NCBI GenBank assembly: GCA_963843585.1
Contig: CAWJLJ010000014.1
Location: forward strand, 51,299-75,298
Direction: 5' to 3'
DNA from: an uncultured Acidobacteriota bacterium
GTDB lineage: Bacteria > Actinomycetota > Acidimicrobiia > Spongiisociales > ZC4RG35
Length of the DNA: 24,000 bases
Part shown: piece after piece, positions 5,123 through 24,000 of the stretch
How the letters are laid out: each line of letters begins with the position of its first letter
How positions within the stretch are numbered: position 1 is the first letter of the stretch
Notes under the pieces: generated by a model
The model's database searches: none
What the model saw: only the letters and a program-made list of their open reading frames with translations
What the model was told of the DNA's origin: nothing
Program-made: the position numbers and the translations under genes

Positions 5123-5152
5123 GAGCCAATGAATACAAGGGCAAACAAGGGA

Positions 5153-5293
5153 TCGGCGCCCTCGGCAGGATTCGAACCTGCGACACCCGGTTTAGGAAAC
5201 CTGCTCTGTATTCGAGCCTCTCAAAACCCGAAAACGCCAATAAACATAGGGTTTTCGCGTTCTCTAGGTTTGGCGCGTTCCGGTGCTCAGTTT
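5153..5293 (-). repeat. 141-bp repeat copy 1 containing a tRNA-Arg(CCU)-like element (minus strand, about 5157-5235)
   Basis: Read on the minus strand it shows a canonical T-arm (GCAGG-TTCGAAT-CCTGC), the 3' acceptor strand CGAGGGC-G, and an anticodon arm (CAGGT-TTCCTAA-ACCGG, anticodon CCT). The 5' strand GTTTTCG pairs only through three G.U pairs, and the D-region is aberrant and enlarged. About 95% identical to 23782-23922. An extra shared flank, caatgaatacaagg (5127-5140), links it to copy 2. Confidence 0.8.
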
Positions 5294-5295
5294 CC

Positions 5296-5535
5296 TACGT
5301 GTTTGCGGACTTGACCGACGGCCTCGGCGCTGATGTGGCCATCGAGGCGGTGGGTGTGCCCCCTACCTTCGAGTTGGCAGCGTCGTTGATCCGACCTGGT
5401 GGTCGGGTGGCCAACATCGGCGTGCACGGCGAGCCGGCAACTCTTCACCTCGAAGAGCTCTGGATCAAGGATGTGACCATCACCACTGGGTTGGTCGAAC
5501 ACCTACTCGACCCCCACGCTCCTCTGCGACCATGA
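5296..5535 (+). pseudogene. C-terminal fragment of a Zn-dependent (MDR) alcohol / threonine-dehydrogenase-like gene
   Basis: The translation YVFADLTDGLGADVAIEAVGVPPTFELAASLIRPGGRVANIGVHGEPATLHLEELWIKDVTITTGLV matches the MDR nucleotide-binding / C-terminal region. It begins abruptly at the repeat boundary, so the N-terminal ~200 aa are absent. The expected continuation NTYSTPTLL lies in another frame. Confidence 0.65.
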
Positions 5536-5734
5536 GAAATCCGAACCCCAAGACCAGCAGAAAACCGGCGGTGCGTCGCTCATTTGACACCGTCGGCCAA
5601 CTGTATGAACCGGCAGGACCGAATGCATCTGACATACGTCTGTCACGAAGGACGCGACGGCCGCGAAGCTGGCCAAACCGAGGGTGGAATCGCCCCGCTC
5701 TAAGAATCCTTGACAAGGGTCAGCGCCAGAAAGT

Positions 5735-5812
5735 CAATGAATACAAGGAAAATGGAGCAGAGCGCCCTCGGCAGGATTCGAACCTGCGACACCCGGTTGA
5801 AACCTGCTCTTG
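5735..5812 (-). repeat. Short copy 2 of the tRNA-Arg-like repeat (T-arm, acceptor and partial anticodon arm)
   Basis: 5762-5798 is identical to the copy-1/copy-3 core gcgccctcggcaggattcgaacctgcgacacccggtt. A 3-nt deletion removes part of the anticodon loop. It shares the caatgaatacaagg flank (5735-5748) with copy 1 but lacks the long 5' extension. Confidence 0.75.
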
Positions 5813-5846
5813 TCCTCATGGATCACCTCTCGCCTAACAGCTTGGG

Positions 5847-8800
5847 TCAGCGCCCCCGGTCCTGTCGACCCCCCAGGTCCGCGCCCGCCGAACGTCGTGC
5901 GAGCCGGCGGTGCGTCTGCACCTCTTCGACGAACGACCGCCGAACCTCGGGGTCGGTGATGCGCGCCGAGGTCTTCTCGACATAGGCCTTTGCCAGGTCG
6001 ATCAGCTCGGCGGCGGTGACTTCGTCGGCAGCACCGAGCGCCGTGTGGCAGGACAGCAAGGCTGCCACCGGCTCCTCGATGCCGTCGGCGCCGTGGCTAC
6101 GAAAGTGGTCTAGGACCTCGTCGACCAGCTTGCGCGCCTCGTCGTCCCGGCCCTGCCCGGCCACTACTTCGGCGAGACCGGCACGGGCCTCGACCAGCCT
6201 TCCCCTGCTCCCCAGCTCCTCGTGCAACTCGAGAGCGCGGCGGTAGTTGCTCTCGGCTTCGGACAGGTTGCCGTCGCTGCCGTCGAGCCGGGCGAGCATG
6301 GTCAGCGAGGCGGCGAGTTCGTAGCTCAGGCCTGCCGCAGAAGCCATCGCAACGGCCTGTTCGGCGAACGCCCGAGCGGATGCGGTTTCGCCGTGCGCCG
6401 CCTCCACCTGAGCGAGCTGCTCGATGGTCTGCGACTCGCCCTGTCGGTCGCCCTCCTCGACGAACAGGCGTCGCGACTCGGTGAAATGTTCGGCCGCCAG
6501 CTCCACGCGTCCGGTGCGGAGGGCGATTTGGCCGAGGCCCTGGAACGAGGCGGCTTCGCCCTCGAGGTCGTCGATCTGGCGGGCGATCTCCATGGTGCCC
6601 TCGTAGGCCGCCCACCCGGCGTCGTAGTCGTGCTGGGCGAGGGCTACCAGCGCCAGGTTGTTGAGCACCCGGTTCTCGCCAACCCGATCTCCCATCGCCT
6701 TCTTTGCAGCCAGTGCCTGTTCCAGGGACGATCGTGCCACCTCGTACTCCTCACGGTCGTACGCCAGGATGCCCATGCTGTTGAGCACCCGACTCAAGCC
6801 GGCGCGGCCTCCGACTCGTCGCCAGGCTCGCGCGCTCTCTCGGTAATCGGCTTCGGCGTCGTCGTATCGGCCGAGGTAGTGCAGGGCGACGCCCCGGTTG
6901 TGCTGGACGTCAGCGGCGATGGAGTCGATCCCGGCGCGGCCGGCCAGGTCCAGCGCTTGGGTGAGGACAGGTACCGCCTCGGCGGGGCTGCCCTGGCCCC
7001 AGAGGGCGGTACCGAGTGCCAGGAGCGCATGGGCCGTCGCCTCGTCGTCGCCGATGCTAAGGGTCATCTCTACGGCTCTGCGGGCGTGGGCCTCGGCGTC
7101 ACCCTGGCGGCCCATGTCGGTCGCCTGACGAACGCGACGCAGCTCGACATCCATCCGTTTCCGGGGGTCATCCAGCACGTCGGCCAGCTCGGCGAGCGTG
7201 TCCAGGTCGCCGGTCTCGGCGGCACGGTCACCGATGATGTGGTGGATCTCCTGGAGGGCGCCCACCACCTCGAATCGGAGCTCGACGTCGGAATCATCGG
7301 CTAGGTCGGCGGAGCGGTCGAGTTGTGCCAGGGCCTCGGCGTTGGCGTACCTCGAGGCCGCGGCCCGACCCGCCCGCAGGTACCAGACCGCGGCCGAGCC
7401 TCCATCCTCGGCGGCCTCGTAGTGGGCGGCGATCAAGGTGGCGAACTCCTCGGCGCGCTCGGTGGACTCGACCACTGAGGCAAGCCAGGTAGCCGCCCGT
7501 GCGTGGTAGTCCCTTCGGTAACGGCGCAGCACCGACTGGTAGGCGACGTCGCGGAGCACGGCATGCTTGAAGACGTATTCGGCGGCGTCTGCGATGCTCG
7601 ACGCCTCCCGGCCGTACACCAGCTCTCGTACTCGCAACGCGTTCAGCGACTCCTCGATCTCGCCGCCGTCGGCGTTGTCTCCGAGTGCGACCACTGCCCG
7701 ATCCCAGAAGCTTCGCCCGATCACGGCGGCGCGGTGAAGCACGGACTTCTCCTCGGGCGTTAGGGAGTCGATCCTCGCCTGGAGGACGCCGACCAGGGTC
7801 TCGGGCACCCGTACCGTGGGTAGGCGATCCTGGGCGACGGTCCAGGAGTGGGGGCTCTTCACGATCACGCCATCCTCGATGAGCATCTTGACCAGCTCCT
7901 CGACGTGGAAAGGGTTTCCCTCGGCAGCGCTCACCACCGTGTCGCGCAGATCGCGGGGGAGATCGGGGACCTTGGCCAGGATGTCGGTGACCAGCCGACG
8001 GCTTTCCAGAGTCCCGAGAGGGCGCAGGTCGATGCGCTTGTGTCGGGGCTCACCCGCCTGCCACTGCGGACGGCGGACGAGGAACGCTGGACGGGCGCCA
8101 CACACGAGAAGCATCCGCCGGTTCCCCGGCTCAGCGACCAACCGGGCCGCGAGGTCGAGTGAGGGGTCGTCGGCCCAGTGGATGTCGTCGAGAACCACGA
8201 CAACCGGGTCCTCGGAAGCCAGCCCGGAGGCCCACTCGAGGAATGCGGCGGTGCCCAGCTCGTGAACGGCCTGAGCCTCCAGGTCGGAGGGAAGGGACTT
8301 GGCGCCCACCTCGAACCCGAGTAGGTAGCCGATCAAGGCGGCGCGGTCCCCGTCGAGCCCGAGCGTGGCCGAGGCGGGAGCGACGACTCCGAGCCCGGCA
8401 GACAGCTTTTTTCCGACCACCCCCGGAGGATCGGTGTCGAGGATCTCGAACCGGCTGGCGACGGTGTCGCGGATCAGCGAGAAGGCGTCGTGTTCCGTGC
8501 CCTGGCGGGCCCGTCCCTGGATGAAGACGATCTCGTCAGGGAGCAGGTCGAGCCAGGTGGCGAACTCGTCGAGCAGGCGTGACTTCCCCATACCGGCCTC
8601 GCCGACGATCGTGACTAAGCAAGGGTGTCCCTCGGAGGCGGCCACGTAGGCGTCGCGGAGCCTCTCTAGCTCGGCCTCACGCCCCACCATCGGGTTTTCC
8701 ACCCCCTCGACACCGCGGGCCGGGGCACGAAACGCTCGCGGCTTGGCCCGTTCCACCACATAGGCGCGGACGAGCTCCTTCTTCCCCTTCAGGGCGAGTG

Positions 8801-9449
8801 GCGCCACCTCGCGGACGTCGAAGACCCCGCGGACATGCCGAAAGGTGGAGTGGGCTATGAGGACACCGTTGACTGGAGCCTCCGCCTGCAGTCGGGACGC
8901 CACGTTGATCGGGTCGCCGACGGCGATCCACTCCTCATGGGGACGGTCGCCCACTGCGCCGATCACGACCTCACCAGTGTTGATTCCCACACGCATCTCA
9001 AGCGCCGGTCCTCCCTCGTCGGCGAGCGCGTCGTTGAGCACGTCCAACGATGCCACCATGTCGAGAGCAGCGAGGATGGCCCGCTCCGGGTCGTCCTCCT
9101 GTGCCTGCCTCATCCCGAACACGGCCATCACCGCGTCGCCGATGAACTTCTCGACGACACCGCCTCGTCCCTCGATGGTCGCCGTCCAGGCGGCGAAGTA
9201 GCGGTCGACGACGGTGCGGACGTCCTCGGGGTCCAACCGCTCTGACATGGCGGTGAAGCCGACGAGATCGGCGAAAAGCGTGGTCACAAGCTTGCGCTCC
9301 TCGGTCACGGGGGACTGGAGCTGGGCTATGCGCTCCACCAGCGGCCGCAGCCCGGCATCGACCACCTCGTCTCCCAGCTTCGCCCGCTGAGCCTCCAGCG
9401 CGGCGACGGCGGCGCGGAGGCGGTCGCGCTCCTCAGCGGACCCAGTCAA
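5847..9449 (-). CDS. Adenylate/guanylate cyclase domain - AAA/STAND NTPase - TPR-repeat regulatory protein (~1200 aa)
   Basis: An N-terminal coiled coil is followed by a class III cyclase domain (ERKLVTTLFADLVGFT..., KFIGDAVMAVFG, GINTGEVV), a Walker A (GEAGMGKSRL), Walker B-like VVVLDDIHWAD, and a long TPR-like C-terminus. The start is uncertain. I propose TTG 9449 (ggtgga 9 nt upstream), because the tracked ORF's first 105 codons (to 9764) translate an RNA-like region. Confidence 0.85.
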   Translation of the reverse strand: MTGSAEERDRLRAAVAALEAQRAKLGDEVVDAGLRPLVERIAQLQSPVTEERKLVTTLFADLVGFTAMSERLDPEDVRTVVDRYFAAWTATIEGRGGVVEKFIGDAVMAVFGMRQAQEDDPERAILAALDMVASLDVLNDALADEGGPALEMRVGINTGEVVIGAVGDRPHEEWIAVGDPINVASRLQAEAPVNGVLIAHSTFRHVRGVFDVREVAPLALKGKKELVRAYVVERAKPRAFRAPARGVEGVENPMVGREAELERLRDAYVAASEGHPCLVTIVGEAGMGKSRLLDEFATWLDLLPDEIVFIQGRARQGTEHDAFSLIRDTVASRFEILDTDPPGVVGKKLSAGLGVVAPASATLGLDGDRAALIGYLLGFEVGAKSLPSDLEAQAVHELGTAAFLEWASGLASEDPVVVVLDDIHWADDPSLDLAARLVAEPGNRRMLLVCGARPAFLVRRPQWQAGEPRHKRIDLRPLGTLESRRLVTDILAKVPDLPRDLRDTVVSAAEGNPFHVEELVKMLIEDGVIVKSPHSWTVAQDRLPTVRVPETLVGVLQARIDSLTPEEKSVLHRAAVIGRSFWDRAVVALGDNADGGEIEESLNALRVRELVYGREASSIADAAEYVFKHAVLRDVAYQSVLRRYRRDYHARAATWLASVVESTERAEEFATLIAAHYEAAEDGGSAAVWYLRAGRAAASRYANAEALAQLDRSADLADDSDVELRFEVVGALQEIHHIIGDRAAETGDLDTLAELADVLDDPRKRMDVELRRVRQATDMGRQGDAEAHARRAVEMTLSIGDDEATAHALLALGTALWGQGSPAEAVPVLTQALDLAGRAGIDSIAADVQHNRGVALHYLGRYDDAEADYRESARAWRRVGGRAGLSRVLNSMGILAYDREEYEVARSSLEQALAAKKAMGDRVGENRVLNNLALVALAQHDYDAGWAAYEGTMEIARQIDDLEGEAASFQGLGQIALRTGRVELAAEHFTESRRLFVEEGDRQGESQTIEQLAQVEAAHGETASARAFAEQAVAMASAAGLSYELAASLTMLARLDGSDGNLSEAESNYRRALELHEELGSRGRLVEARAGLAEVVAGQGRDDEARKLVDEVLDHFRSHGADGIEEPVAALLSCHTALGAADEVTAAELIDLAKAYVEKTSARITDPEVRRSFVEEVQTHRRLARRSAGADLGGRQDRGR

Positions 9450-9726
9450 AGAGTGGGATCCACCATGTAGCGGATCATGGCGACGAGAAAACGGCGCGGC
9501 GCCGAGTTGGGTACACGGGCGAAAGATACTCGTGTGTCGAAACACGCAGCCCAGCGAATGTACGGGTCGAAAGTCTCTGCTAGCCAGACCGACTGGGACG
9601 TAGGCTGACTTTGGCTGGACAGACCGCCGTGTCTCGCTACGTCTCACGACGCTCGTTCCACAGCCGCGCCACAGGACTGCCAATCGGTGCCGTTTCCCCT
9701 GGTGACAGGGCTTTGACATTTTTCGC

Positions 9727-9766
9727 AACGAGAAGGTCGCGGGTTCGAATCCCGCCAGCTCCACTA
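9727..9766 (+). ncRNA. tmRNA (ssrA)-like 3' terminus: T-arm plus alanine-type acceptor 3' strand; apparently an orphan fragment
   Basis: GCGGG-TTCGAAT-CCCGC (9739-9755) is followed by CAGCTCC-A (9756-9763). This would pair with a 5' GGGGCTG carrying G3:U70, the tmRNA/tRNA-Ala signature. No GGGGCTG and no tag ORF ending ..AA-stop were found within 450 nt upstream. CTA follows rather than CCA. Confidence 0.45.
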
Positions 9767-9955
9767 AACGCCCTGGTCAAGGGTGTGAAACCCGGATCCC
9801 TCATTTCTCGCGCGAATTGCCTTGGAGTCGCCGCGTGCCACGGGGACTATCCGCAGCGGCCGCTGCGGTCAACGCGAACCGTCTGGTGAGTCTCTTATCC
9901 GACACCGCTGGGGCGTCTCGGGCATCCGACAGGCAGCCATAACGCTACAGCGAAT

Positions 9956-9983
9956 CATCCGTCCCCCCCGTCTGGTCCGAAGT
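9956..9983 (+). promoter_or_regulatory. Candidate ECF (SigK-like) promoter upstream of the fasciclin lipoprotein gene: CATCC-N17-CGAAGT
   Basis: CATCC at 9956-9960, a 17-nt spacer, and CGAAGT at 9978-9983, 41 nt before ATG 10025. It has the same architecture as the sites at 11183, 14462(-), 17110(-), 17122 and 23633(-). Confidence 0.45.
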
Positions 9984-10024
9984 AGGGGTGACGGCACAAG
10001 TAGTGCCGGAAAGGATGACAAACC

Positions 10025-10678
10025 ATGACCCGAAAGATCAGACTGTCCATGCTCATAGCGGTGCTGGCTCTGGTCGTAGCCGCGTGTGGCGATGACTCCG
10101 CGGAGGACACGACCACCACCCAAGCGGATGCAACCACCACCACCGAGGCCGAGATGACATCGACCACCGAGGCGGGGATGACGACGACCACCGAAGCCGA
10201 CGTGACGTCGACCACCGAGGCCATGATGGAAGAGACTGTCCTCGACATCGCCGCAGGCAACGAGGACTTCTCGACGCTCGCGGCCGCGGTGGAAGCCGCC
10301 GGTCTCCAGGATGCGCTCAGCGACCCTGAGGCCACCCTGACCGTATTCGCCCCGACGAATGAAGCCTTCGAAGCCGCCCTGGCGTCGCTCGGGCTGACGG
10401 CCGAAGAGCTCCTGGCCGACACGGAGACCCTGACCGCGATCCTCACCTATCACGTCCTCGGCGACATCGTCACCTCCAGCGACATCGCCGCAGCAGGAAC
10501 AGAGGAGATCCCGGTGGAAACGCTCTCCGGGGAAGAGTTGGTCGTCGTGGTCGGAGATGACGGGACGGTCGGCTTCGTCGATCAAACGGCGACAGTCACC
10601 ATGGCAGACATCGAAGCGTCCAATGGCGTGATCCACGTCATCGATGCAGTTCTCCTCCCACCATCGATGTCAAGCTAA
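10025..10678 (+). CDS. Fasciclin (FAS1) domain lipoprotein with a Thr-rich repeat linker (MPT83/MPT70-like)
   Basis: A signal peptide with lipobox LVVAAC|G, then 4 x 8-aa TTEAxMTx repeats, then a FAS1 domain (DFSTLAAAVEAAGL, TVFAPTNEAF, LTYHV, NGVIHVIDAVLLP). SD ggaaagga lies upstream. Confidence 0.9.
   Translation: MTRKIRLSMLIAVLALVVAACGDDSAEDTTTTQADATTTTEAEMTSTTEAGMTTTTEADVTSTTEAMMEETVLDIAAGNEDFSTLAAAVEAAGLQDALSDPEATLTVFAPTNEAFEAALASLGLTAEELLADTETLTAILTYHVLGDIVTSSDIAAAGTEEIPVETLSGEELVVVVGDDGTVGFVDQTATVTMADIEASNGVIHVIDAVLLPPSMSS
10139..10234 (+). repeat. Four tandem 24-nt coding repeats (ACCACCGAGGC...) inside the fasciclin gene
   Basis: The units are 10139-10162, 10163-10186, 10187-10210 and 10211-10234. 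Each starts with accaccga(g/a)gc and encodes TTEA-x-(M/V)-(T/M/E)-(S/T/E). Confidence 0.85.
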
Positions 10679-10697
10679 GCGACACGCCGTTCCGCAA

Positions 10698-10734
10698 GAA
10701 CAACGGGCCGCGCTCTGAGCGCGGCCCGTTGTTC
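10698..10734 (+). terminator. Strong hairpin terminator after the fasciclin gene
   Basis: GAACAACGGGCCGCGC-tctga-GCGCGGCCCGTTGTTC is a perfect 16-bp stem, 20 nt after the stop. There is no long U-tract. Confidence 0.7.
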
Positions 10735-10798
10735 GCGTGGATGCAGACGACGGATTGCTGGCTCCCCGCGATGGACGCGCGATAGAAACTTCGGACGG

Positions 10799-11049
10799 GA
10801 GAGTGCCGAGAGGGTCACTGCCTTCTCGGGTTCGATGCCTTCGTCTACATCAACGTCATCTGGTTCGGCTGCTGGATCGGCTTCGGCATAGAGAACTACC
10901 CCTACGGTCTCTTGACCATGGTCGTCTCGCTCGAAGCGATCTTCCTCTCCACCTTTGTCCTGATCTCAAACGCGCGAAGTGCCTGCTCAGAAGCCATTCT
11001 CGGTTCCAGTCATTTCACGTTGTTGACCGTTGCATGCGGTCCGCGGTGA
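10799..11049 (+). pseudogene. DUF1003-like membrane protein remnant (frameshifted, no start codon, degenerate C-terminus)
   Basis: One frame gives NFGRESAERVTAFSGSM, and the next gives AFVYINVIWFGCWIGFGIENYPYGLLTMVVSLEAIFLSTFVLIS, the DUF1003 core that is normally followed by QNRQ. The frames join through a missing G at atg(g)cc near 10837. The tracked 120-aa ORF 10737-11099 is in the wrong frame. Confidence 0.45.
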
Positions 11050-11182
11050 TAGATCCGATGGCAGACGGGCCAGCCTGCAAGCTCCAATCGGTCTTTTGAC
11101 TCCCCGGCATCGCGAACCGACAGCCTTCAAGTGACCTCCACGTCTCAGGAATCACGGTTCTCGAGCGATCCGATGCTCTCGA

Positions 11183-11210
11183 CATCCGATCGGACCGGGC
11201 GCAACGAACA
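11183..11210 (+). promoter_or_regulatory. Candidate ECF (SigK-like) promoter of the heliorhodopsin operon: CATCC-N17-CGAACA, 6 nt from the ATG
   Basis: CATCC at 11183-11187, a 17-nt spacer, CGAACA at 11205-11210, then acgtgc and ATG 11217. There is no SD sequence, which fits a leaderless transcript. Confidence 0.55.
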
Positions 11211-11216
11211 ACGTGC

Positions 11217-11996
11217 ATGACGACAACGACAGAGACCATCGTCACGCCCCGGGCCGGTGATCGTCTCCGTGCCTACAACGTCGGCATGGGCGCGCTCCAC
11301 GCCATCCAGGCCTTCTTGGTCCTTTGGCTGGCCAACGGATTCACGCTCCCGGTGATCGCCACATACATGGCGGGGCCTCCTGGCTCCGCTCCGCCCGCGG
11401 TGACACCCCTCTTCGAGGTGAGCATTGCCTGGGGCGTGGCAATTTTCTTGTTCATGTCCGCCGTGGCCCACTTCCTCATCGCCTCGCCCGGCATCTACCA
11501 GTTGTATCGCCAGAACCTGAATCGCCAGCGCAACTATGCCCGTTGGATCGAGTACTCCCTCTCGTCATCGGTCATGGTGGTACTGATCGCCCTTCTGACC
11601 GGGATCGCCGACATCGCAGCCCTGCTTGCCATTGCCGGAGTCAATGCATCGATGATCCTGTTCGGCCTTCTCCAGGAGAAATATGAGACACCAGGCAAGG
11701 CGGTCGGCTGGCTGCCCTTCTGGTTCGGAGTTCTGGCCGGGGCTATTCCTTGGATCGCTATCGCCTGGTACCTGTTCAGCCCCGGCTTCGATTCGAACCC
11801 TCCCGGGTTCGTGTACGGGATCTTCTTCTCCCTCTTTGTCTTCTTCAACGTGTTCGCGGTCGTCATGGTCCTGCAGTACAAGCAGGTCGGTCGGTGGGCG
11901 GACTACAGCTTCGGGGAATCGACCTACATCCTGCTCAGCCTGGTGGCCAAGTCGGCCCTGGCGTGGCAGGTATTCGGAGGAACACTGGCGACATGA
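11217..11996 (+). CDS. Heliorhodopsin (seven-TM retinal protein)
   Basis: 259 aa, collinear with the prototype heliorhodopsin 48C12 as I recall it. Shared segments are RWIEYSLSSSVMVVLIA, GIADIAALLAIAGVNASMILFGLLQEKY, LPFWFG...IPWI, PGFVYGI and YILLSLVAKSALAWQVFGGTL. The Schiff-base Lys (K245), counter-ion Glu (E112) and conserved His (H28, H85) are all present. Confidence 0.92.
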   Translation: MTTTTETIVTPRAGDRLRAYNVGMGALHAIQAFLVLWLANGFTLPVIATYMAGPPGSAPPAVTPLFEVSIAWGVAIFLFMSAVAHFLIASPGIYQLYRQNLNRQRNYARWIEYSLSSSVMVVLIALLTGIADIAALLAIAGVNASMILFGLLQEKYETPGKAVGWLPFWFGVLAGAIPWIAIAWYLFSPGFDSNPPGFVYGIFFSLFVFFNVFAVVMVLQYKQVGRWADYSFGESTYILLSLVAKSALAWQVFGGTLAT

Positions 11997-12466
11997 GACA
12001 AACCACAGGAACCGAAAGACCGGCAGATCACAAGGCGGTCCGCCTCATCGAGCAGAGATGGGTGGAGCGAGCCCAGGACGAAGCATTCATCTACACCGCC
12101 GATTTCTCCAACATCGAGGACTGGGATCCAGGTGTGGTCTCCTCTCGGGGGCTCGGCCATGGGCCCGTCGGTGTCGGCTCGCAATTCGAGCTGGAGGTCG
12201 AGTTCGGCAGTGGCACGATGCCGATGGTCTACGAGATCACGGAATACGAGCCCAGCGATCGGGTAGTCCTGGTCGGCCGGGGTGACAAGCTCGGCGCGGT
12301 CGACGAGATCCGCTTCTCACGGCACGACAACATGACCGTGATCGACTACACCGCCGACCTCACCTTCCTCAACTGGTACAGGCACATCACCCGCTTGATG
12401 GGACCAAGCCTGAAGAAGGTCGGGACCAAGGCTCTCGACGGCCTCGCGGCCGAGCTGGACAGATGA
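11993..12466 (+). CDS. SRPBCC (START/polyketide-cyclase-like) ligand-binding protein
   Basis: 157 aa. Its ATG overlaps the heliorhodopsin stop as ATGA (11993-11996). The size and pattern are typical of SRPBCC (FSNIEDWDPGV..., GSQFELEVEFGSG..., YEITEYEPSDRVVL). Confidence 0.75.
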   Translation: MRQTTGTERPADHKAVRLIEQRWVERAQDEAFIYTADFSNIEDWDPGVVSSRGLGHGPVGVGSQFELEVEFGSGTMPMVYEITEYEPSDRVVLVGRGDKLGAVDEIRFSRHDNMTVIDYTADLTFLNWYRHITRLMGPSLKKVGTKALDGLAAELDR

Positions 12467-13398: not shown

Positions 13399-13432
13399 GC
13401 CGGGTGCGTCGCGACCACATCAGCGAGAGAAC

Positions 13433-14425: not shown

Positions 14426-14433
14426 CCGCTGTC

Positions 14434-14462
14434 AATTCGGCGCCGAACAACTAACTGGATGG
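14434..14462 (-). promoter_or_regulatory. Candidate ECF (SigK-like) promoter of the acyltransferase gene: CCATCC-N17-CGAATT, 8 nt from the ATG
   Basis: The minus strand reads CCATCC-agttagttgttcggcgc-CGAATT-gacagcgg-ATG. It contains the 12-bp perfect palindrome TTCGGCGCCGAA. Confidence 0.6.
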
Positions 14463-14512
14463 CTTCTTCGCTCAGCAGGCTCCGGAATCAAGTCGCTCCA
14501 GACGCTGTTTGA

Positions 14513-16988: not shown

Positions 16989-17082
16989 CGACCTGCCGGC
17001 GGACACATGAACCGGGGATGTTAGGTAGGCCCCATTCCGGTAACGCCCTGGCTGCAAGCGAGCTGACTCCATCTACAACACC

Positions 17083-17110
17083 TATTCGTCACCGCCCCGA
17101 GCCCTGGATG
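17083..17110 (-). promoter_or_regulatory. Candidate autoregulatory ECF promoter of sigK-rskA: CATCC-N17-CGAATA
   Basis: The minus strand reads tCATCC-agggctcggggcggtga-CGAATA. It lies back-to-back with the plus-strand copy at 17122-17150, with the two -35 elements 11 nt apart. Confidence 0.6.
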
Positions 17111-17121
17111 AGACAGCCGAC

Positions 17122-17150
17122 CCATCCGGTCTGCTGTTCGGCGACGAATA
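17122..17150 (+). promoter_or_regulatory. Candidate ECF promoter of the oxidoreductase-DUF1365-CFA synthase operon: CCATCC-N17-CGAATA, 6 nt from the ATG
   Basis: CCATCC-ggtctgctgttcggcga-CGAATA-cgcggc-ATG(17157). There is no SD, and it shares GTTCGGCG(A/C)CGAAT with the sites at 14434 and 23605. Confidence 0.62.
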
Positions 17151-17156
17151 CGCGGC

Positions 17157-18467
17157 ATGGGACAGAGAATCGCGATCGTCGGAACGGGCATCTCCGGTCT
17201 CGGCGCCGCCTGGGCCTTGCATCGGGACAATGACATCACGGTCTTCGAGGCGGACAATCGGATAGGCGGCCATTCGAATACCGTCGATGTCGAGACCCCC
17301 GATGGTCCTCTGGCGGTCGACACCGGATTCATCGTTTACAACGAGGTCACCTACCCCAACCTGACCCGCCTCTTCTCGTCGCTCGGCGTATCCACCGAAA
17401 TGAGTGACATGTCGTTTGCCTTCTCCCTGGACCGCCAGTTCGAGTACGGGGCGAGCCTGAGTGGGGTTTTGGCCGAGCCGGGCAACCTCCTCAGCCCGAG
17501 GTTCCTCCGGATGCTTCGAGACATAAGTCGATTCCGCCGCATCGGGACCATGCTGGAGCCGGCGGGCGACGAGAACATCGGCGAACTCCTCGAACGGTAC
17601 GGCTTCTCCCAAGGCTTCCTCGATGACTACCTCTACCCCATGACCGGTGCGATCTGGTCGGCTCAGCGATCGAATATCAGCATGTTCCCCGCTGCGTCGA
17701 TTCTCCGCTTTCTGGCCAACCACGGATTGATCGAGATCGTGGGGCGGCCCAGGTGGCGGACTGTGACCGGTGGGAGCCGGAGCTATGTCAATCGACTTGT
17801 GAGGCCCTTTGCCGACCGAATCAGAACGAACTCGCCCGTGAATCGCATCGTCCGCCTCGGCGGTGAGGTGCTGGTCGAGTCCAATGGGCAGACGCAGTCG
17901 TTCGAACAGATCATCTTCGCCACCCACCCCGATCAGGCTCTGGCCATCCTCGGTGAGGACGCCACCGATACCGAGGGCGCCGTACTCGGTGCCATGCGGT
18001 ATGAGTCGAACGTCGCCGTCCTCCATAGCGACTCGAGCCTGATGCCCCGGAACCGCAGGGTTTGGTCCAGCTGGAATGCGATGGCGGAGGAAGCCGGCCG
18101 CCGTCACCAGGTGGCCTCGGTGACCTACTGGATGAACCGCCTCCAGAACCTCAACCCCTCGTACCCCTTGTTCGTCTCCCTCAATCCGTTGCGGGAGCCG
18201 GATCCAGGCCAGGTTCACGCTCGTTTCGCATACGCCCACCCACAGTTCGATCTCGAATCGGTGGCGGCACAACAGGGTCTCGCCGCGATCCAGGGCCTGA
18301 GCAACACCTGGTTCGCCGGGGCCTACCTCGGCTACGGCTTCCACGAGGACGGGCTCCAGTCAGGTCTCAACGTGGCAGCGGCCCTCGGCTCCCCGGTGCC
18401 ATGGCACGGCACTTTCGAACCAGTTAGCTCGGCCCCGTCCTTCACGGGGAGGGTGGTGGTCCCTTGA
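17157..18467 (+). CDS. FAD/NAD(P)-binding amine-oxidase-family oxidoreductase (Rv0449c-like)
   Basis: 436 aa with an N-terminal Rossmann motif RIAIVGTGISGLGAAW...VFEA..RIGGH. The size and context match the flavin oxidoreductase that accompanies DUF1365 and CFA-synthase genes. Confidence 0.85.
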   Translation: MGQRIAIVGTGISGLGAAWALHRDNDITVFEADNRIGGHSNTVDVETPDGPLAVDTGFIVYNEVTYPNLTRLFSSLGVSTEMSDMSFAFSLDRQFEYGASLSGVLAEPGNLLSPRFLRMLRDISRFRRIGTMLEPAGDENIGELLERYGFSQGFLDDYLYPMTGAIWSAQRSNISMFPAASILRFLANHGLIEIVGRPRWRTVTGGSRSYVNRLVRPFADRIRTNSPVNRIVRLGGEVLVESNGQTQSFEQIIFATHPDQALAILGEDATDTEGAVLGAMRYESNVAVLHSDSSLMPRNRRVWSSWNAMAEEAGRRHQVASVTYWMNRLQNLNPSYPLFVSLNPLREPDPGQVHARFAYAHPQFDLESVAAQQGLAAIQGLSNTWFAGAYLGYGFHEDGLQSGLNVAAALGSPVPWHGTFEPVSSAPSFTGRVVVP

Positions 18468-19246
18468 GGCCGTTACGGTCTGCCCTCTACCAGGGCCGGG
18501 TGCGCCACACCCGGCTCCAGCCCTTTCATCACGATTTCGAGTACCGGGTCTTCTACGGGCTATTCGATATCGACGAGCTCGACTACCTCGACCGGGGACT
18601 CAGGCTCTTCTCAGTCGGAAGACGCAACCTGGCGAGCTTCTACCCCCAGGACCATGGCCCCGTCGACGGGAGCTCTCTTCGAGCCTGGGCCGAAGACGTC
18701 CTCGCAGAGGCGGGTGTCGACATCGACGGCGGAAGGATCGAGCTGCTCGCCTTCCCCCGGATCCTCGGCTACGCCTTCAACCCGTTGAGCGTCTGGTACT
18801 GCTACGGGAGCGAAGGCAATCTCAAAGGAGTCCTCCACGAGGTGCGGAACACGTTCGGTGACCGCCACGTGTACGTGGTGCCCGTCAATGATGAGACGGC
18901 GTACCGACACAGCTTCGCCAAGGCGATGCACGTATCCCCTTTCAATCCGATGGAGCAGACCTACCACTTCACGGTCAACCGGCCCGGGAAGCGGCTTCAA
19001 GTGGCGATCGAGCAGACCGACGAAAGGGGCAAGGTGTTCCGGGCGGGGATGAGGCTCTCACGGATTCCCTTGACCGACCGCAATCTGCTCAGGGTCTTCT
19101 TCACTCACCCCCTGGTGACGATGAAGGTCATCGCAGGGATCCACTGGCAAGCCCTGCGGCTCTGGCTCAAGGGCGCCACCTATCGGAAACGCCCTCGGCC
19201 CCCCGCCGATAGCATCACGATCGTGGACCCGAGCATGGTCGGATGA
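18464..19246 (+). CDS. DUF1365-family protein
   Basis: 260 aa. Its TTG start overlaps the previous stop as TTGA. The motifs SALYQGRVRHTR..P..H.F.YRVFY and FPRILGYAFNPLSVWYCY are typical of DUF1365. Confidence 0.8.
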   Translation: MRPLRSALYQGRVRHTRLQPFHHDFEYRVFYGLFDIDELDYLDRGLRLFSVGRRNLASFYPQDHGPVDGSSLRAWAEDVLAEAGVDIDGGRIELLAFPRILGYAFNPLSVWYCYGSEGNLKGVLHEVRNTFGDRHVYVVPVNDETAYRHSFAKAMHVSPFNPMEQTYHFTVNRPGKRLQVAIEQTDERGKVFRAGMRLSRIPLTDRNLLRVFFTHPLVTMKVIAGIHWQALRLWLKGATYRKRPRPPADSITIVDPSMVG

Positions 19247-20409
19247 AGGCCCGGGAGCGGCTAGGTCTCCGCGTCTTCTCCTGGCTGGCACGTGCAGGGA
19301 GCATCCAGGTGACGCTTCCCACCGGGGAGACGGTATCGATCGGCCACGGGTCGCCCGGCGCCGACGTCGAGATCACGGACTATTCGGCCGTGGCCGACAT
19401 CCTCCGCACCGGCCTCACCGGATTCGCGGAGGCGCATATGGACGGGCGGATCGAGACCTCGGACCTTCCCGCCCTGCTCCGCTGGGGCGTAGCCAACCAA
19501 GCCGCCTGGTTCGAGCACCCCCTGGCCCGTCTGACGCTGCCCTTCCGGAGGCTGTGGCAGCGGATCCGTCCCGAGAGACGGCACCCGCGAGTGCGAAGCA
19601 TGAACGATCATTACAACCTCGGAAACGACTTCTACGAGAAGTGGCTCGACGAAACGATGACCTACTCCTCCGCCCGTTTCCTCGACCCCGACCAACCGCT
19701 GTCGGGAGCCCAGATGAACAAGTACCGGCTGATCGCGGACAAGGCTGGCTTGGCGCCCGGGATGCGGGTACTCGAGATCGGATGCGGTTGGGGAGGATTC
19801 GCCGAATACGCAGCCTCGGAAAGAGGCTGTGAGGTCACCGCAATCACCTTATCCAAGGAGCAGGCGTCCTACGCCGAGAAGCGGATCGCCGAGCGCGGCC
19901 TGGCCGACAAGGTCGAGATCCGGCTCGCCGACTTCAGGGACATCACCGGCGAATTTGACGCAGTCGTCTCCATCGAGATGATCGAATCGGTCGACGAGAC
20001 CCATTGGCCGGCCCTGTTCGAGATGATCGCCGACCGCCTCAAGCCAGAGGCGCGGGCTGCGATGCAGATCATCACGATCAGAGACGACGAGTGGGAGCGC
20101 TACCGATCCAGGGCCGACTTCATACAGCAGTACATCTTCCCCGGGGGACAGATCCCGGCGCCCAAGGTCCTCAAGGCGTTCGCCGGCAAGGCCCGTCTGG
20201 ACGTGGAGCAAATCGAGACCTTCGGCCTCGACTACGCGCGAACCCTGGCGGCTTGGCGGGACCGCTTCCTGGAGGCGTGGCCGGTGCTCCAGGTTGAACA
20301 CGACCTCGACGAGCGTTTCCGCCGCATGTGGGAGCTGTACCTCGCCCTTTGCGAGGCGGGGTTCCGCATGGGGCGGATCAACGTCGAGCAGTGGGTATTC
20401 GCCCGCTGA
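19243..20409 (+). CDS. Cyclopropane-fatty-acyl-phospholipid synthase-family SAM-dependent methyltransferase
   Basis: Its ATG overlaps the previous stop as ATGA. It has HYNLGNDFYEKWLDETMTYSSA, the SAM motif VLEIGCGWGGFA, DAVVSIEMIE, FIQQYIFPGG and YLALCEAGF. Confidence 0.88.
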   Translation: MKARERLGLRVFSWLARAGSIQVTLPTGETVSIGHGSPGADVEITDYSAVADILRTGLTGFAEAHMDGRIETSDLPALLRWGVANQAAWFEHPLARLTLPFRRLWQRIRPERRHPRVRSMNDHYNLGNDFYEKWLDETMTYSSARFLDPDQPLSGAQMNKYRLIADKAGLAPGMRVLEIGCGWGGFAEYAASERGCEVTAITLSKEQASYAEKRIAERGLADKVEIRLADFRDITGEFDAVVSIEMIESVDETHWPALFEMIADRLKPEARAAMQIITIRDDEWERYRSRADFIQQYIFPGGQIPAPKVLKAFAGKARLDVEQIETFGLDYARTLAAWRDRFLEAWPVLQVEHDLDERFRRMWELYLALCEAGFRMGRINVEQWVFAR

Positions 20410-20453
20410 TAGATCTCCTCCGGCTCCTTCGCCCAGGTTCCTGACCCGGATCT

Positions 20454-20481
20454 CATCTGAATCACTCGACCGCTCCGAAGC
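20454..20481 (+). promoter_or_regulatory. Weaker match to the ECF motif: CATCT-N17-CGAAGC, upstream of the 20535 gene
   Basis: tCATCT-gaatcactcgaccgctc-CGAAGC, 53 nt before ATG 20535, which has its own SD gaaggag. There is one mismatch in the -35 and the -10 is degenerate. Confidence 0.3.
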
Positions 20482-20534
20482 ACGGGTGAAGCAAGCGACC
20501 ACTCAAGACGGTCGTAAGACAGAAGGAGATCTAA

Positions 20535-20939
20535 ATGCGCAAGCTGATGCTTCTCATGGCCGTGATGGTGGTGGCGATACTGCCGGCCACGGCCGCAATG
20601 GCCCAGTCGGACGAGGGTCAGGTCATCGTGGTTCACGGTGTTCCCGATCTGGACGTCGACGTGTACGTCAACGGTGAGCTCACCCTCGAGGGCTTTCAGT
20701 TCGGCGATGTAGCCGGTCCGCTGGACCTGCCCGCCGGCACCTACGAGATCGAGATATTCGCCGCCCTCTACCCGAAGGAAGAGCTGCCCCTGGACGCTAT
20801 CTTCTCCAAGGAGGGGCCTCCGGTGCTGACACTCATTACGTGCGGCGGCGGCTTTGATCCAGGCGTCGCTCGCTACGACAGCAACGTCGTCGTCTACGCC
20901 ACGCCAGCTGTCGACCTCCCGGCTTCTTTGATCGGGTGA
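20535..20939 (+). CDS. Secreted chimeric protein: signal peptide plus DUF4397-like N-terminal half fused to a sortase (class F-like) C-terminal tail
   Basis: Signal peptide MRKLMLLMAVMVVAILPATAAMA. The segment VIVVHGVPDLDVDVYVNG...LPAGTYEIEI is DUF4397-like. The segment LPLDAIFSKEGPPVLTLITCGGGFDPGVARYDSNVVVYATP is a sortase C-terminus with the TLxTC Cys and a downstream Arg, but there is no His-bearing sortase core. Confidence 0.6.
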   Translation: MRKLMLLMAVMVVAILPATAAMAQSDEGQVIVVHGVPDLDVDVYVNGELTLEGFQFGDVAGPLDLPAGTYEIEIFAALYPKEELPLDAIFSKEGPPVLTLITCGGGFDPGVARYDSNVVVYATPAVDLPASLIG

Positions 20940-21985
20940 TGGTGTCCTTCTCACGCTCGACCACAGGTAGCCTCCACGCTTTCGTAACGGAGCGAAAAGT
21001 GGATGAAAGCAGCCTCAGATCTGCGCGGCTCGGAGTCACCGCGGCCGCCCTTTCGGGGGACTCCGGCGGGCTCTACAACATCGTTGCCCGCCTCATGGAT
21101 GAGGGGGTTCCTCTCGACTCGCTGCTCTTCGACCTCCTCCTTCCCACTGAAAGAGATGTCGGATCGCGATGGCAAAGCGGGGATTACCTGGTCTCGGAGG
21201 AACACACCGCGACGGCCACAGTCGAGACCGTCGTCGCGCTCCTTGCGGGGTCGTTGGACCAACCAGAGGACGGCCTCCATGTCGTGGTTGCCTCAGCTGA
21301 AGGCGACTCTCACTCCTTGGCAGGCCGGGCCGTGGTCGCCTATCTACTCTTCAGCGGATTCCGGACCACCTTCCTCGGCGCCAACGTGCTCGCAACCGAC
21401 CTGCGGGAGTTCCTCGCCAGCGAGCAGCCCGACGCGATGATCATCTCCTGCACGATGACCAACCATCTCATCGGAGCCAGGGCAGTGATCAGCCAGAGCC
21501 ACTCCGCAGACGTGCCTGTACTCGCGGGAGGGCGGGCGTTCGGCGGGACCGGGGCGTGGGCGACCACGCTCGGAGCCGACGCCTGGGCGTCGCACCCGAG
21601 AGAGATCCCAGGCGTCCTACAGACCTGGGTGCCAGACGTAAGAGCGTCCGAGAGCCGGGCTCGTAACCCTTCGGACGACCTGCTGAAGCTGATCGAACGA
21701 CGCACCTCGGTTCTCGCTCGAGCACAGGAGGATCTGGAGCGACGTCTCGGAGAAACGCCTGGCCCCCGCCTGCGAGACGAGCTCGCCCTGCTTCTCGGCG
21801 CTGTCGAAGCGTCTTTGCTGGTAGGCGACAACGAGGTGGTCGTCGAGGCTCTCAAGTGGCAAAGAGCGACCCTCCAGGCCCACGGGCACGGCGACTCGGG
21901 CCCACTGACGGAGGCCGTCATTGCAGGCTTGCAGCCGGTATCCCTCGAAGCCGCCGAGGCTCTTCGCTCCGCCCTGTCCAGTTAG
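20936..21985 (+). CDS. Stand-alone cobalamin (B12)-binding protein, CarH/AerR-like, lacking a DNA-binding domain
   Basis: A four-helix-bundle region carries W79-x9-E89-H90 (RWQSGDYLVSEEH). A Rossmann-like B12-binding domain carries DSHSLA (the DxHxxG-type lower-ligand His126) and VLAGG. A ~130-aa helical C-terminal extension follows. The start is uncertain: GTG 20936 or ATG 20939 (coupled to the upstream stop), or GTG 20999 with ggag upstream. Confidence 0.75.
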   Translation: MMVSFSRSTTGSLHAFVTERKVDESSLRSARLGVTAAALSGDSGGLYNIVARLMDEGVPLDSLLFDLLLPTERDVGSRWQSGDYLVSEEHTATATVETVVALLAGSLDQPEDGLHVVVASAEGDSHSLAGRAVVAYLLFSGFRTTFLGANVLATDLREFLASEQPDAMIISCTMTNHLIGARAVISQSHSADVPVLAGGRAFGGTGAWATTLGADAWASHPREIPGVLQTWVPDVRASESRARNPSDDLLKLIERRTSVLARAQEDLERRLGETPGPRLRDELALLLGAVEASLLVGDNEVVVEALKWQRATLQAHGHGDSGPLTEAVIAGLQPVSLEAAEALRSALSS

Positions 21986-21994
21986 ACGCCGGTC

Positions 21995-22028
21995 GGAGCG
22001 GGGGGTGGGTCACGCCCCACTCCGCTCC
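21995..22028. terminator. Imperfect GC-rich hairpin between convergent genes
   Basis: GGAGCGG..GTGGG-tcacgc-CCCAC.CCGCTCC lies between the 21985 stop and the 22064 stop. Confidence 0.4.
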
Positions 22029-22063
22029 GTGGCGAGCGAATCCCCAGCCCGACGGGCAACCTC

Positions 22064-23596
22064 TTAGATCGGTGGCTTCGGGCGTCGGCCGGCCACCTCG
22101 ACAATGCGACGGGCCATCGGGCCGAAAACCATCGAATGGAACGGCCAGAGCAGATACCAGTAGAGGCGACCTGCCAGTCCGCGTGGGGCGAAGTGAGCGG
22201 TCTGGATCAGACTGGTATGGCCACTCTTGCTTTCGACTTCAAACTCGAGCCAGGCCTCGCCAGGCAATCTCATCTCGGCGACCAGCAGGAGGCGTCGGTT
22301 GTCTTCGAGGTCGGCCACCCGCCAGAAGTCGAGTGTGTCACCTCGCACCAAAGCAGTGCGGGGTCCCGCATTTCGCTGGAGGCCGACACCGCCCACCACA
22401 CGGTCGATCAGACCTCGAAACCACCAGGCCCAACCGGCGGCGTAGTAGCCAACTTCGCCTCCTATCCGTGTCACTGCCCAGTAGACGTCCGCTGCCGGAG
22501 CTGCCGTTTCCACCACCTTGCGGTCCCGCAGCCAGCGGGCACCGGCCCAGGCCGGATCGGTTGGCAGGCTCACCGCCGGTTGCTCCACAGCCTCGTGCCA
22601 TCGGGTTTCATCGGTGTTCCCCTCCACCCTTTCCAGGGCGTCAGAAACGGCCTCGCGATACGGGCTGAGGGGACGCTCGACAAACTCTGTTGCCGCGTTC
22701 TCGGTGACAACGACCTCGGTGATGAGGCTGTCTATGAGGGTGCGCGCGATTCGGGTGGGCACTGCGGTGACGAGACCCACCCATCGAGAGGAGAGCGAGG
22801 GGGAGAACATCGGCACTGGCAAGATCAGGCGGTGCCGAAGACCGGCCTCTTCGGCGTAGATCTGCATCATGTCCCTGTAGGTGAGAACGTCGGGACCGCC
22901 CACCTCCAGCATCTGATGATCGGCCAGGTCGTGATCGAGCAGTCCGACAAGAACTGCCAATACATCCCTGGCAGCGATGGGCTGGCATCGAGTCTGAACC
23001 CAACGAGGCGTGATCATCACTGGAAGCACCTCGGTCAGATGTCGAAGCATTTCGAACGAGACCGAGCCCGACCCGATGATCACTGCCGCCCTGACCTCAC
23101 TGAGTGCGATCGGACCGGCGGCGAGAACCCGACCTACCTCTTGACGGCTGGCCAGATGGCCGGAGAGGTTGGTCGAGCCTCCCAGACCACCCATGTAGAT
23201 GATCCTCTGCACGCCCTGACGTTCCGCCGCCCGACGGAAGTTCTCGGCGGCTTGACGGTCACGGGTGGCAAACCCCTCGCCGCCGTCCATCGAGTGAATC
23301 AGGTAGTAGGCGGTGTCAATCCCCTCCAGAGCGGCGTCCAACGATGCCCGCTCCAGAGCATCCGCCACCGCCACCTCCACCTGCTTATGCCAGGGGTGGC
23401 CGCTGAGACCCTCGGCGCTCCGCACCATGCAACGCACCTGATAGCCCGCCGCCAGGAGTTGGGGCACCAGGCGGCCCCCCAGGTAGCCACTGGCTCCGGT
23501 CACCAGCAATGTGGATCCGGAAGTGCGTGCGGGGTCAGCCGACGATGGCTCCGCTGATGCCCTCTCGTACTGTTGCAAAGCATCCTCGTTCGTCAT
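22064..23596 (-). CDS. Atypical SDR / NmrA-like NAD(P)-binding domain fused to a DUF2867 domain
   Basis: 510 aa with LLVTGASGYLGGRL (Rossmann fold) and an extended-SDR-like N-terminal half. The C-terminal ~150 aa (WRVADLE...LLLVAEMRLPGEAWLEFEV...) are typical of DUF2867. Confidence 0.82.
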   Translation of the reverse strand: MTNEDALQQYERASAEPSSADPARTSGSTLLVTGASGYLGGRLVPQLLAAGYQVRCMVRSAEGLSGHPWHKQVEVAVADALERASLDAALEGIDTAYYLIHSMDGGEGFATRDRQAAENFRRAAERQGVQRIIYMGGLGGSTNLSGHLASRQEVGRVLAAGPIALSEVRAAVIIGSGSVSFEMLRHLTEVLPVMITPRWVQTRCQPIAARDVLAVLVGLLDHDLADHQMLEVGGPDVLTYRDMMQIYAEEAGLRHRLILPVPMFSPSLSSRWVGLVTAVPTRIARTLIDSLITEVVVTENAATEFVERPLSPYREAVSDALERVEGNTDETRWHEAVEQPAVSLPTDPAWAGARWLRDRKVVETAAPAADVYWAVTRIGGEVGYYAAGWAWWFRGLIDRVVGGVGLQRNAGPRTALVRGDTLDFWRVADLEDNRRLLLVAEMRLPGEAWLEFEVESKSGHTSLIQTAHFAPRGLAGRLYWYLLWPFHSMVFGPMARRIVEVAGRRPKPPI

Positions 23597-23604
23597 CCAC
23601 TAGT

Positions 23605-23633
23605 GATTCGGCGCCGAACCTTGTCGTGGATTG
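23605..23633 (-). promoter_or_regulatory. Candidate ECF promoter of the SDR-DUF2867 gene: CAATCC-N17-CGAATC, 8 nt from the ATG
   Basis: The minus strand reads CAATCC-acgacaaggttcggcgc-CGAATC-actagtgg-ATG(23596). It shares the 14-mer ATTCGGCGCCGAAC with the acyltransferase promoter. Confidence 0.55.
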
Positions 23634-23781
23634 CATCTGGTCGACCGACAGGTTCGCTGTCTGGTACTGGCCGCGGACTATGCCTCTTCATCGGTCCGCC
23701 GAAGCGGGCCGAGATGGCGGTTGATCTCGCCTGGTTCCAGCGTGACCTGCGGTGGGCGGCAACCCGGCCTGGTCTTGAGGG

Positions 23782-23922
23782 TCGGCGCCCTCGGCAGGAT
23801 TCGAACCTGCGACACCCGGTTTAGGAAACCTGCTCTGTATTTGGGCCTCCCAACACCCGAAAACGCCAATAAACATAGGGTTTTCGCGTTCTCTAAGGTT
23901 GGCGCGTTCCGGTGCTCAGTTT
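23782..23922 (-). repeat. 141-bp repeat copy 3 containing the tRNA-Arg(CCU)-like element (minus strand, about 23786-23864)
   Basis: A direct repeat of 5153-5293 with about 7 differences. Three of them are pairing-preserving changes in one hairpin. Confidence 0.8.
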
Positions 23923-24000
23923 TAGGCGGGACACTGAATTTTTCAGCGAACTCAGCGGGGGAGATATCGACTCGACTGGCCTTGTCACCGGGCTGGAGCG

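Follow-up and report, generated by a model that had tools for sequence, protein, structure and literature searches.

Direct repeats around a heliorhodopsin gene block as probable separators of a cassette array behind a tRNA-Arg(CCU) gene in soil Acidimicrobiia

We analyzed a stretch of 24,000 nt (the window; G000:C14:51299-75298, where G000 is the metagenome-assembled genome (MAG) under study and C14 its contig), in which two tRNA-derived direct repeats flank a block of about 18 kb that carries genes for a heliorhodopsin and an ECF sigma factor. The repeats are probably two of the separators in an array of cassettes growing behind a tRNA-Arg(CCU) gene that lies outside the window. The array is, on balance, best read as the product of tandem accretion at this tRNA gene, a process that is known as such and is seen here without an integrase in view. 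The MAG is 3.4 Mb in size, with 65% GC, 94% completeness and 7.1% contamination. Positions on C14 are contig coordinates, while other unlabelled positions are those of the window. The integrase survey covered 31 genomes of the genus and 3 further MAGs, and the orthologue survey the 30 genus genomes other than G000.

A preliminary description of this DNA had placed the direct repeats at 5153-5293 and 23782-23922. A repeat search, confirmed by alignment, recovered them as a 144-nt pair at 5150-5293 and 23779-23922 with 95% identity. The search also returned a third copy, as a 37-nt exact match to both of the others at 5762-5798. That description had missed this copy, and also further copies and the true tRNA gene that lie shortly beyond the window. 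When read on the minus strand, each long copy consists of an 88-nt arm of non-tRNA sequence, followed by a core of ≈50 nt that represents the 3' part of tRNA-Arg(CCU). Arm and core together are referred to here as a unit. The elements of the three copies are as follows:

5125..5140, minus strand: P' motif CCTTGTATTCATTGGC of the left unit, about 15 nt after the core
5156..5205, minus strand: core (O) of the left unit, the tRNA-Arg(CCU) 3' part, spanning anticodon arm through 3' end but 2 nt short in the anticodon stem
5206..5293, minus strand: arm of the left unit, 88 nt, non-tRNA, starting AAACTGAGC
5733..5748, minus strand: P' motif after the third core
5762..5808, minus strand: third core, armless (X-O-P'), which keeps the unit-type 2-nt deletion and is the left limit of the cargo
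23679..23784, no strand: junction segment Y, 106 nt, common to genome G003 and not to G019 or G021, without a P' motif
23785..23834, minus strand: core (O) of the right unit
23835..23922, minus strand: arm of the right unit

The cores of both long copies matched a 45-nt tRNA 3'-end query at 45/45 nt, and in BLAST a stretch of 54 nt was 96% identical. The match begins where the D arm closes and continues across the anticodon and T arms to the 3' end, except that the anticodon stem lacks 2 nt. The repeats were thus rightly described as containing the 3' part of a tRNA-Arg(CCU), and they have the character of attachment-type sequences. Neither copy is a canonical tRNA, as had also been proposed: ARAGORN predicted no tRNA in the window, and there was no Rfam tRNA match in the window at E ≤ 1. 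Only the last ≈50 nt of any unit resemble the true tRNA gene, which is accordingly related in sequence to the repeats, a point that the preliminary description had left to be checked. All units lack the same 2 nt of the true tRNA, on the 5' side of the anticodon stem. For this reason, the units are descendants of one element-borne site and did not arise by duplication of the gene.

The unit stands out as a module of its own, with sharply defined ends. In an alignment of 38 distinct copies from at least 15 MAGs, the mean pairwise identity was 33% in the 10 nt upstream of the arm, 82% in the arm, 96.5% in the core and 31% in the adjacent 10 nt of DNA after the core. The two copies in the window are not nearest to one another, since copies on contig C15 of the same MAG and in genome G041 are equally close or closer. 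The arm, which starts with AAACTGAGC, contains two direct repeats, GAACGCG(CC/A)AAACC, with a spacing of about 19 nt, as well as a 7-nt inverted pair, CGAAAAC / GTTTTCG, and nothing upstream of the true tRNA genes resembles it. Judged by their sequence, the paired repeats look like candidate arm-type binding sites of a lambda-like tyrosine integrase. Some 10 nt past the core, a P' motif, CCTTGTAYTCRTTGAC, is present in about 60% of units and at 5 of the 6 true tRNA-Arg(CCU) genes examined; in G000, it was found solely after these cores. In two Arg(CCU)-type units, the sequence breaks off at the same core position, immediately past CCGGGTG, a possible preferred breakpoint. On one JGI (Joint Genome Institute) metagenome contig, a truncated IS3-family transposase (HTH_21 + rve; L065:3446-4042) abuts the arm of a unit.

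The preliminary description had suggested that the repeats might belong to a dispersed family of tRNA-derived elements. They do belong to a family, but when the whole MAG was searched by BLAST, the further copies were not scattered. They are grouped behind tRNA genes, on C14 and C15. The C14 copies are at 56448 (left repeat), 57030 (short), 75077 (right repeat), 76221 (short) and 79596, all in one orientation. The true tRNA gene, tRNA-Arg(CCT) in DNA letters, is at C14 c[82938,83011], in the same orientation as the cores and 7.7 kb past the right end of the window, with three more cassettes in between. In all, C14 holds six cores with five cassettes between them. C15 has its own tRNA-Arg(CCT) and two further units, bringing the totals for the MAG to five full units, two short copies without an arm and two true tRNA genes. 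C15 is a homeologue of positions 1-92 kb of C14, 87–94% identical to it. More generally, contigs C15, C16 and C33 duplicate parts of C14, C19 and C37 at 87–94% identity, whole tRNA clusters included. Since tRNA clusters are also present twice, on C16/C19 and C33/C37, C15 probably comes from a co-assembled relative, so that the MAG mixes two related populations. Elsewhere in the assembly, an 11-kb stretch (G000:C9:9652-20587) matches its own reverse complement at 89.8%, as a giant inverted repeat or an assembly hairpin artefact would.

The genes beside the true tRNA code for a membrane lipase-like protein or an NYN/OST-HTH protein, and not for intI. In some genomes, the gene directly upstream of tRNA-Arg(CCU) encodes a large multi-pass membrane protein that carries a lipase-like HSQGS motif at its C-terminal end and matches nothing in Pfam (L001:7754-9241, equivalent to C14 83052-84539, and homologues); its length varies (495, 658 and 857 aa).

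Arrays of this kind are not peculiar to G000. The full unit is confined to this genus plus a few further Acidimicrobiia MAGs; the GenBank labels of unit-carrying MAGs are Acidimicrobiia or, for Microflora Danica bins, Acidobacteriota. At least 12 related soil Acidimicrobiia species have such arrays, with differing cassettes. Every array consists of 2–12 copies in a single orientation, spaced 0.7–18 kb apart behind tRNA-Arg(CCU), and Arg(CCU) units were seen only behind the matching tRNA gene. The carriers include genomes G003, G006, G008, G019 and G041, and the contents are shuffled between them: in G041, a GH94-containing counterpart of the left flank of the window is also bracketed by units; in G008, flank and unit are in the opposite relative orientation; and in G019, the order of the alcohol dehydrogenase (ADH) gene and the block is permuted. 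Array cargo in the relatives includes a GAF-cyclase, alpha/beta hydrolases, a beta-lactamase-fold protein, SDRs and DoxX/DUF6790. Across some 60 cassettes, Pfam identified metabolic, signalling or stress genes only, and the cassette genes next to the units face either way.

The true limits of the 18-kb block are the core of the right repeat and the third core (5762-5808), not the left repeat. The third core is placed at the left limit because a tract with 99% identity to G019:C13 starts exactly at 5809, the first base outside this core. On the right side, homology with G019 and G021 stops at 23678, and the 106 nt that follow (Y) plus the right unit are common to G003 only. Left-flank homology with the relatives compared ends at about 4966-4989. 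The left repeat closes a separate 0.44-kb mini-cassette that holds only an ADH fragment. The preliminary description correctly noted a truncated ADH gene at the repeat edge: its homology begins at about 5299, right after the arm edge at 5293, and the fragment shares 94% identity with a portion of an ADH gene that is intact (347 aa) in G019:C14.

In the direction of the tRNA, the right junction reads arm-core-Y without P', the third reads X-core-P' without an arm, and the left is a complete arm-core-P'. This is the pattern that would be expected as the reciprocal product of a circle with one core crossing over inside the core of a complete unit. The genes enclosed by these junctions, identified by Pfam, and those adjoining them are as follows:

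5296..5535, plus strand: 3' fragment of a zinc-type ADH gene (mini-cassette 5), last ≈80 codons, covering Pfam ADH_zinc_N profile positions 49–110 only
5847..9450, minus strand: cargo cassette A, an adenylate/guanylate cyclase-AAA-TPR protein
9629..9782, plus strand: Ala-type unit, in which a ≈100-nt arm is joined to the 3' half of a tRNA-Ala(CGC)-like gene (the Arg units are on the other strand)
10025..23596, no single strand: cargo cassette B, from a fasciclin lipoprotein through the NmrA/DUF2867 protein
11217-11996, cassette B: heliorhodopsin
15712-16443, cassette B: anti-sigma factor, RskA-type
16440-17072, cassette B: ECF sigma factor
22064-23596, cassette B: NmrA/DUF2867 protein, last gene of the block
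23912..24000, plus strand: start of F2, the gene of the next cassette, a 322-aa alpha/beta hydrolase that continues past the window (C14 75210-76178; Pfam on a homologue)

The listed open reading frame (ORF) of cassette A extends to 9764; its overlap with the Ala-type unit takes up the first ≈100 codons. In cassette B, SRPBCC, SDR, acyltransferase and esterase genes lie between heliorhodopsin and the anti-sigma factor, and amine oxidase, DUF1365, cyclopropane-fatty-acid synthase, DUF4397 and B12-binding protein genes lie between the ECF sigma factor and NmrA/DUF2867. The fasciclin lipoprotein gene contains four in-frame 24-nt tandem repeats (10100-10228) that make up a Thr/Glu-rich linker. The ECF sigma factor and the trio of amine oxidase, DUF1365 and cyclopropane-fatty-acid synthase presumably resemble the singlet-oxygen (sigmaE-ChrR) and SigK-RskA regulons; by this analogy, the block may be a transferable light and oxidative-stress module, complete with anti-sigma factor, B12-binding protein and heliorhodopsin. 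The F2 gene abuts an arm in G019 and G003 too.

Comparison with the relatives indicates that the block is accessory and, to judge from the DNA identities, was recently exchanged horizontally between species. The marker gene NmrA/DUF2867 has close orthologues (92–99% amino-acid identity) only in G003, G019 and G021, that is, in 3 of the 30 other genus genomes, while the remaining ones have homologues of 53–55% or none. The block matches G019:C13 at 99% DNA identity (9.3 kb), G019:C14 at 97% and G003:C10 at 97–99%, and the neighbouring cassettes match G003 at 95–97%; the flanking DNA matches G003 at 82–88% and G019 at 86–92%. The mosaic is real, because the 99% tract and a 92% flank are on one molecule, the contig G019:C13. 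The k-mer comparison proposed in the preliminary description was carried out and found the block unremarkable for the genome (84th percentile of tetranucleotide distance), which fits an exchange within the genus. An empty site, which had likewise been suggested as a check, was found in two forms: C15 is without the 18-kb block, and G003:C12 has a near-empty site, where F2, a single unit and the left flank are together and 70–160 nt beside the core differ. The heliorhodopsin segment is present twice in G019 (C12, L061; C13, L058), with 99% identity to the window in one case and 95% in the other. Possibly one copy is native and the other a recent acquisition; alternatively, two strains may be mixed in the bin.

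The Ala-type unit inside the block belongs to a second family. It is ≈150 nt long, with an arm that carries a tandem GTCTCACG repeat, and the anticodon-loop CGC and the acceptor strand CAGCTCC-A could be read from the alignment. The MAG contains 12 copies of this family, 11 of them on contigs C11, C12 and C25, where they separate KdpD, Na/H-exchanger-Usp, permease and ClpB cargo, without an integrase by Pfam. No tRNA-Ala(CGC) gene is assembled in the MAG. We considered a transfer-messenger RNA at 9701-9766 and rejected it, as the Rfam score of 31 bits was below the threshold and the sequence differs from the 3' end of the MAG's own tmRNA. In G019:C13, the cyclase-TPR gene is located between two Ala units, and an Ala unit also follows the right end of the block. 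The same cargo is therefore found in an Ala-type array in G019 and, inverted, in an Arg-type array in G000, which suggests that cassettes also move between arrays of different tRNA types. A third family, whose arm partly resembles that of the Arg(CCU) units, occurs behind tRNA-Arg(CCG) in other genomes (L026:7302-7597, L019:2389-2608 and L037:4609-5110). Unit families at three tRNA genes are the pattern that a diversifying attP/integrase family would give.

The tandem accretion that we favor can be described as follows. A circular cargo DNA with one core would recombine with a chromosomal core, either that of the tRNA itself or that of an existing unit, and the core crossover would insert the cargo and duplicate the core. 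Repeated insertions would stack the cassettes, with older ones pushed away from the tRNA. The 18-kb block would have entered by a crossover within a complete arm-core-P' unit, after which the arm would have been retained on the right copy (arm-core-Y) and P' moved to the short third copy (X-core-P'), whereas the left repeat would be the separator of the next mini-cassette, that of the ADH fragment. Excision or loss by att × att recombination may also occur; the signs of it are indirect, namely the reciprocity of the junctions and a block boundary that coincides with the edge of a core. The recombinase would be supplied in trans, either by an element outside these MAGs or by a host enzyme; the conservation of the arm is what argues for such a trans-acting enzyme. 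Alternatively, the units might now serve mainly as portable homology for RecA-dependent exchange. The unit anatomy, single orientation, junction grammar and distribution fit tandem accretion by core crossover. It is from these observations, the array itself and the exchange of its cargo that we infer a site-specific catalysis and the kinds of enzyme that could provide it.

Several results weigh against this interpretation, above all those from the search for a recombinase. Pfam detected no integrase domain in about 90 ORFs from the window, the arrays of relatives and metagenome contigs, and no tyrosine integrase was present within or beside any array examined, over some 60 cassettes. The matches to PF00589 across the 31 genus genomes were never near a unit, except for a Xer-type gene in G001 that is 16 kb away, and no serine recombinase (PF00239) was found in G000. 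Genomes G008 and G041 have at least 12 units each, yet only two Xer-like recombinases. There was no arm or core match and no autonomous element in IMG/VR, and the 6 JGI metagenome contigs with units contained cargo only, apart from the IS3-family transposase fragment, with no copy beside an integrase. About 40% of the units lack the P' motif, and some junctions are 70–160 nt away from the core. As MAGs often miss plasmids and phages, the absence of an autonomous partner from the genus genomes, the further MAGs, IMG/VR and the JGI metagenomes is not proof that there is none.

The other searches were in agreement. Neither PF00589 nor PF00239 had a match on C14 or C15, PF00589 gave nothing linked to units in the 3 further MAGs, and PF12728 (excisionase-type HTH) gave nothing linked to units in 5 genomes. 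An integrase relic had been proposed beside the left repeat, but the ORF in question (4772-5122) has no Pfam match, and there is no PF00589 candidate on the contig. The observation that no intact integrase lies inside the block was correct, as Pfam found none among all major ORFs of the window. The sole int-xis pair of the MAG is at C9 22616-24360, within a lower-GC patch (C9 22616-25316). The 360-aa integrase, the only non-Xer one in the MAG, adjoins an HTH_17 excisionase-like gene and a 319-aa ORF. The DNA around this pair has no similarity to either unit family, and the patch may be a small integrative element with no link to the units. The same genome also has a decayed island of a more conventional kind, at C19:318439-338629, where a tRNA-Leu(TAG) has two partial 3' copies about 19–20 kb downstream and a weak integrase remnant (PF00589, 24.8 bits) right beside it.

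The preliminary description had read the block as a single 18.5-kb genomic island with the two 141-bp repeats as attL and attR. Part of this reading was right, in that the direct repeats contain a tRNA 3' end and the enclosed DNA is accessory and exchanged between genomes, but the repeats are not the ends of one island. Neither is the target tRNA, which is 7.7 kb further on, behind three more cassettes; the actual boundary is the third core; the two repeats are members of a larger family and not sister copies; and the block is composite, holding an Ala-family unit and being located in a tRNA-Ala-type array in G019. In the absence of any integrase as well, we regard a single island as highly improbable. 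An assembly or binning artefact, in which the repeats or the block come from mis-joined contigs of mixed strains, is more improbable still. The contamination of the MAG and its second-strain duplicate contigs (C15, and the tRNA clusters on C16 and C33) are of the kind that might produce one, but the right junction, arm-core-Y-cargo, was assembled independently in G003, and units and arrays recur in at least 15 independent MAGs and on JGI metagenome contigs. It is also very unlikely, if slightly less so, that the unit is an expressed tRNA-like RNA or a cis-regulatory element (insulator, promoter or terminator) kept between operons. Its strong conservation and sharp ends, the nearly invariant T arm and acceptor 3' strand, and a short stem, situated where the arm is variable, that tolerates G-C to G-U changes would be consistent with such a role. 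However, the covariation term from RNAalifold was about zero, with one double change in 24 pairs and no conserved hairpin; ARAGORN and Rfam reject a tRNA identity; no promoter-like or terminator-like sites were predicted in the units; the neighbouring genes are in either orientation; and the units occur solely behind the matching tRNA gene. A 10-bp acceptor-like pairing in the unit was also considered and discarded, since a copy changed on both sides gives a G-A mismatch.

RecA-driven exchange between units is a serious alternative for the present-day dynamics. In its full form, this explanation holds that the units are att scars of ancient integrase-bearing islands, with all site-specific activity lost, and that RecA uses their 140 nt of shared homology to delete, shuffle and import cassettes. 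It would account for the lack of an integrase in any array and the mere two Xer-like genes of some genomes, for the ordinary composition of the block, for the restriction of the observed exchange to the genus and for the imprecision of several junctions. Neutral scars should decay, however, yet the arm and the core have kept mean identities of 82% and 96.5%, with very sharp ends, in species that share only 82–92% identity in their coding flanks. Moreover, some 60 unrelated cassettes all end in the same arm, which homologous recombination could shuffle but not create, and the same design recurs in three unit families at three tRNA genes. We therefore consider relics plus homologous recombination possible but rather unlikely as the whole explanation.

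Among known systems, the closest in organization are the cis-mobilizable elements (CIMEs) of the ICESt1/ICESt3 family in Streptococcus, which undergo tandem accretion at att sites (PMC5704250). Like the cassettes described here, CIMEs are tandem elements in one orientation with att copies between them and without recombination or transfer genes, and their mobilization has been proposed to occur via the integrase of another element (PMC5704250), as we suppose here. They differ in that no autonomous integrase-bearing partner is visible here in about 35 genomes, and in that the arrays here are long (up to 6–12 units), with a site made of a tRNA 3' half and an 88-nt arm, at three tRNA genes. The tycheposon islands of Prochlorococcus also arise by tandem integrations with partial tRNAs (bioRxiv 10.1101/2020.12.28.424599). 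They share with these arrays the location in variable islands beside tRNA genes, the outward displacement of older elements, the scattered partial tRNAs and the niche-adaptive cargo (bioRxiv 10.1101/2020.12.28.424599). Tycheposons, however, are defined by having a tyrosine or large serine recombinase of their own plus replication genes, and Pfam identified no replication or packaging module or hallmark recombinase of this kind in the arrays. Furthermore, no long conserved arm has been reported for the partial tRNAs of tycheposon islands, while the units here have one.

Integron arrays follow the same logic of cargo plus one minimal site per cassette, no mobility genes in the cassettes and a fixed entry point. 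In contrast to integrons, there is no intI at the entry site and no attC-type hairpin here, and the cassettes hold several genes, lie in either orientation and reach 18 kb. A more far-reaching proposal would be an integron-like gene capture system in soil Acidimicrobiia, with cargo-only cassettes, sites of the type "tRNA 3' half + ≈90-nt arm" at several tRNA genes (Arg-CCU, Arg-CCG and Ala-CGC) and a recombinase encoded elsewhere, either host Xer-type or undescribed; we consider this doubtful. The ssrA islands of Dehalococcoides carry ssrA-specific integrases. What is unusual here is the combination of a recombinase that is absent from every cassette with an arm that is nonetheless conserved and sharply bounded, in the same design at several tRNA genes. 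The ssrA-specific islands are described as tandem, with direct repeats of the 3' end of a small-RNA gene, and as exchanged between strains (PMC3146451), all of which they share with the arrays. Among the features of Islander-type islands, a displaced tRNA 3' copy in direct orientation and an empty site are present here, and an intact target tRNA at one end of the block and an integrase inside it are absent.

The array shows that accessory genes are shared between species in an abundant, uncultured lineage of soil actinobacteria. The units are good markers of flexible regions in these genomes, and also explain contig breaks in the MAGs. Finding the enzyme would reveal either a helper element that is missing from the MAGs or a host-encoded system of cassette recombination.

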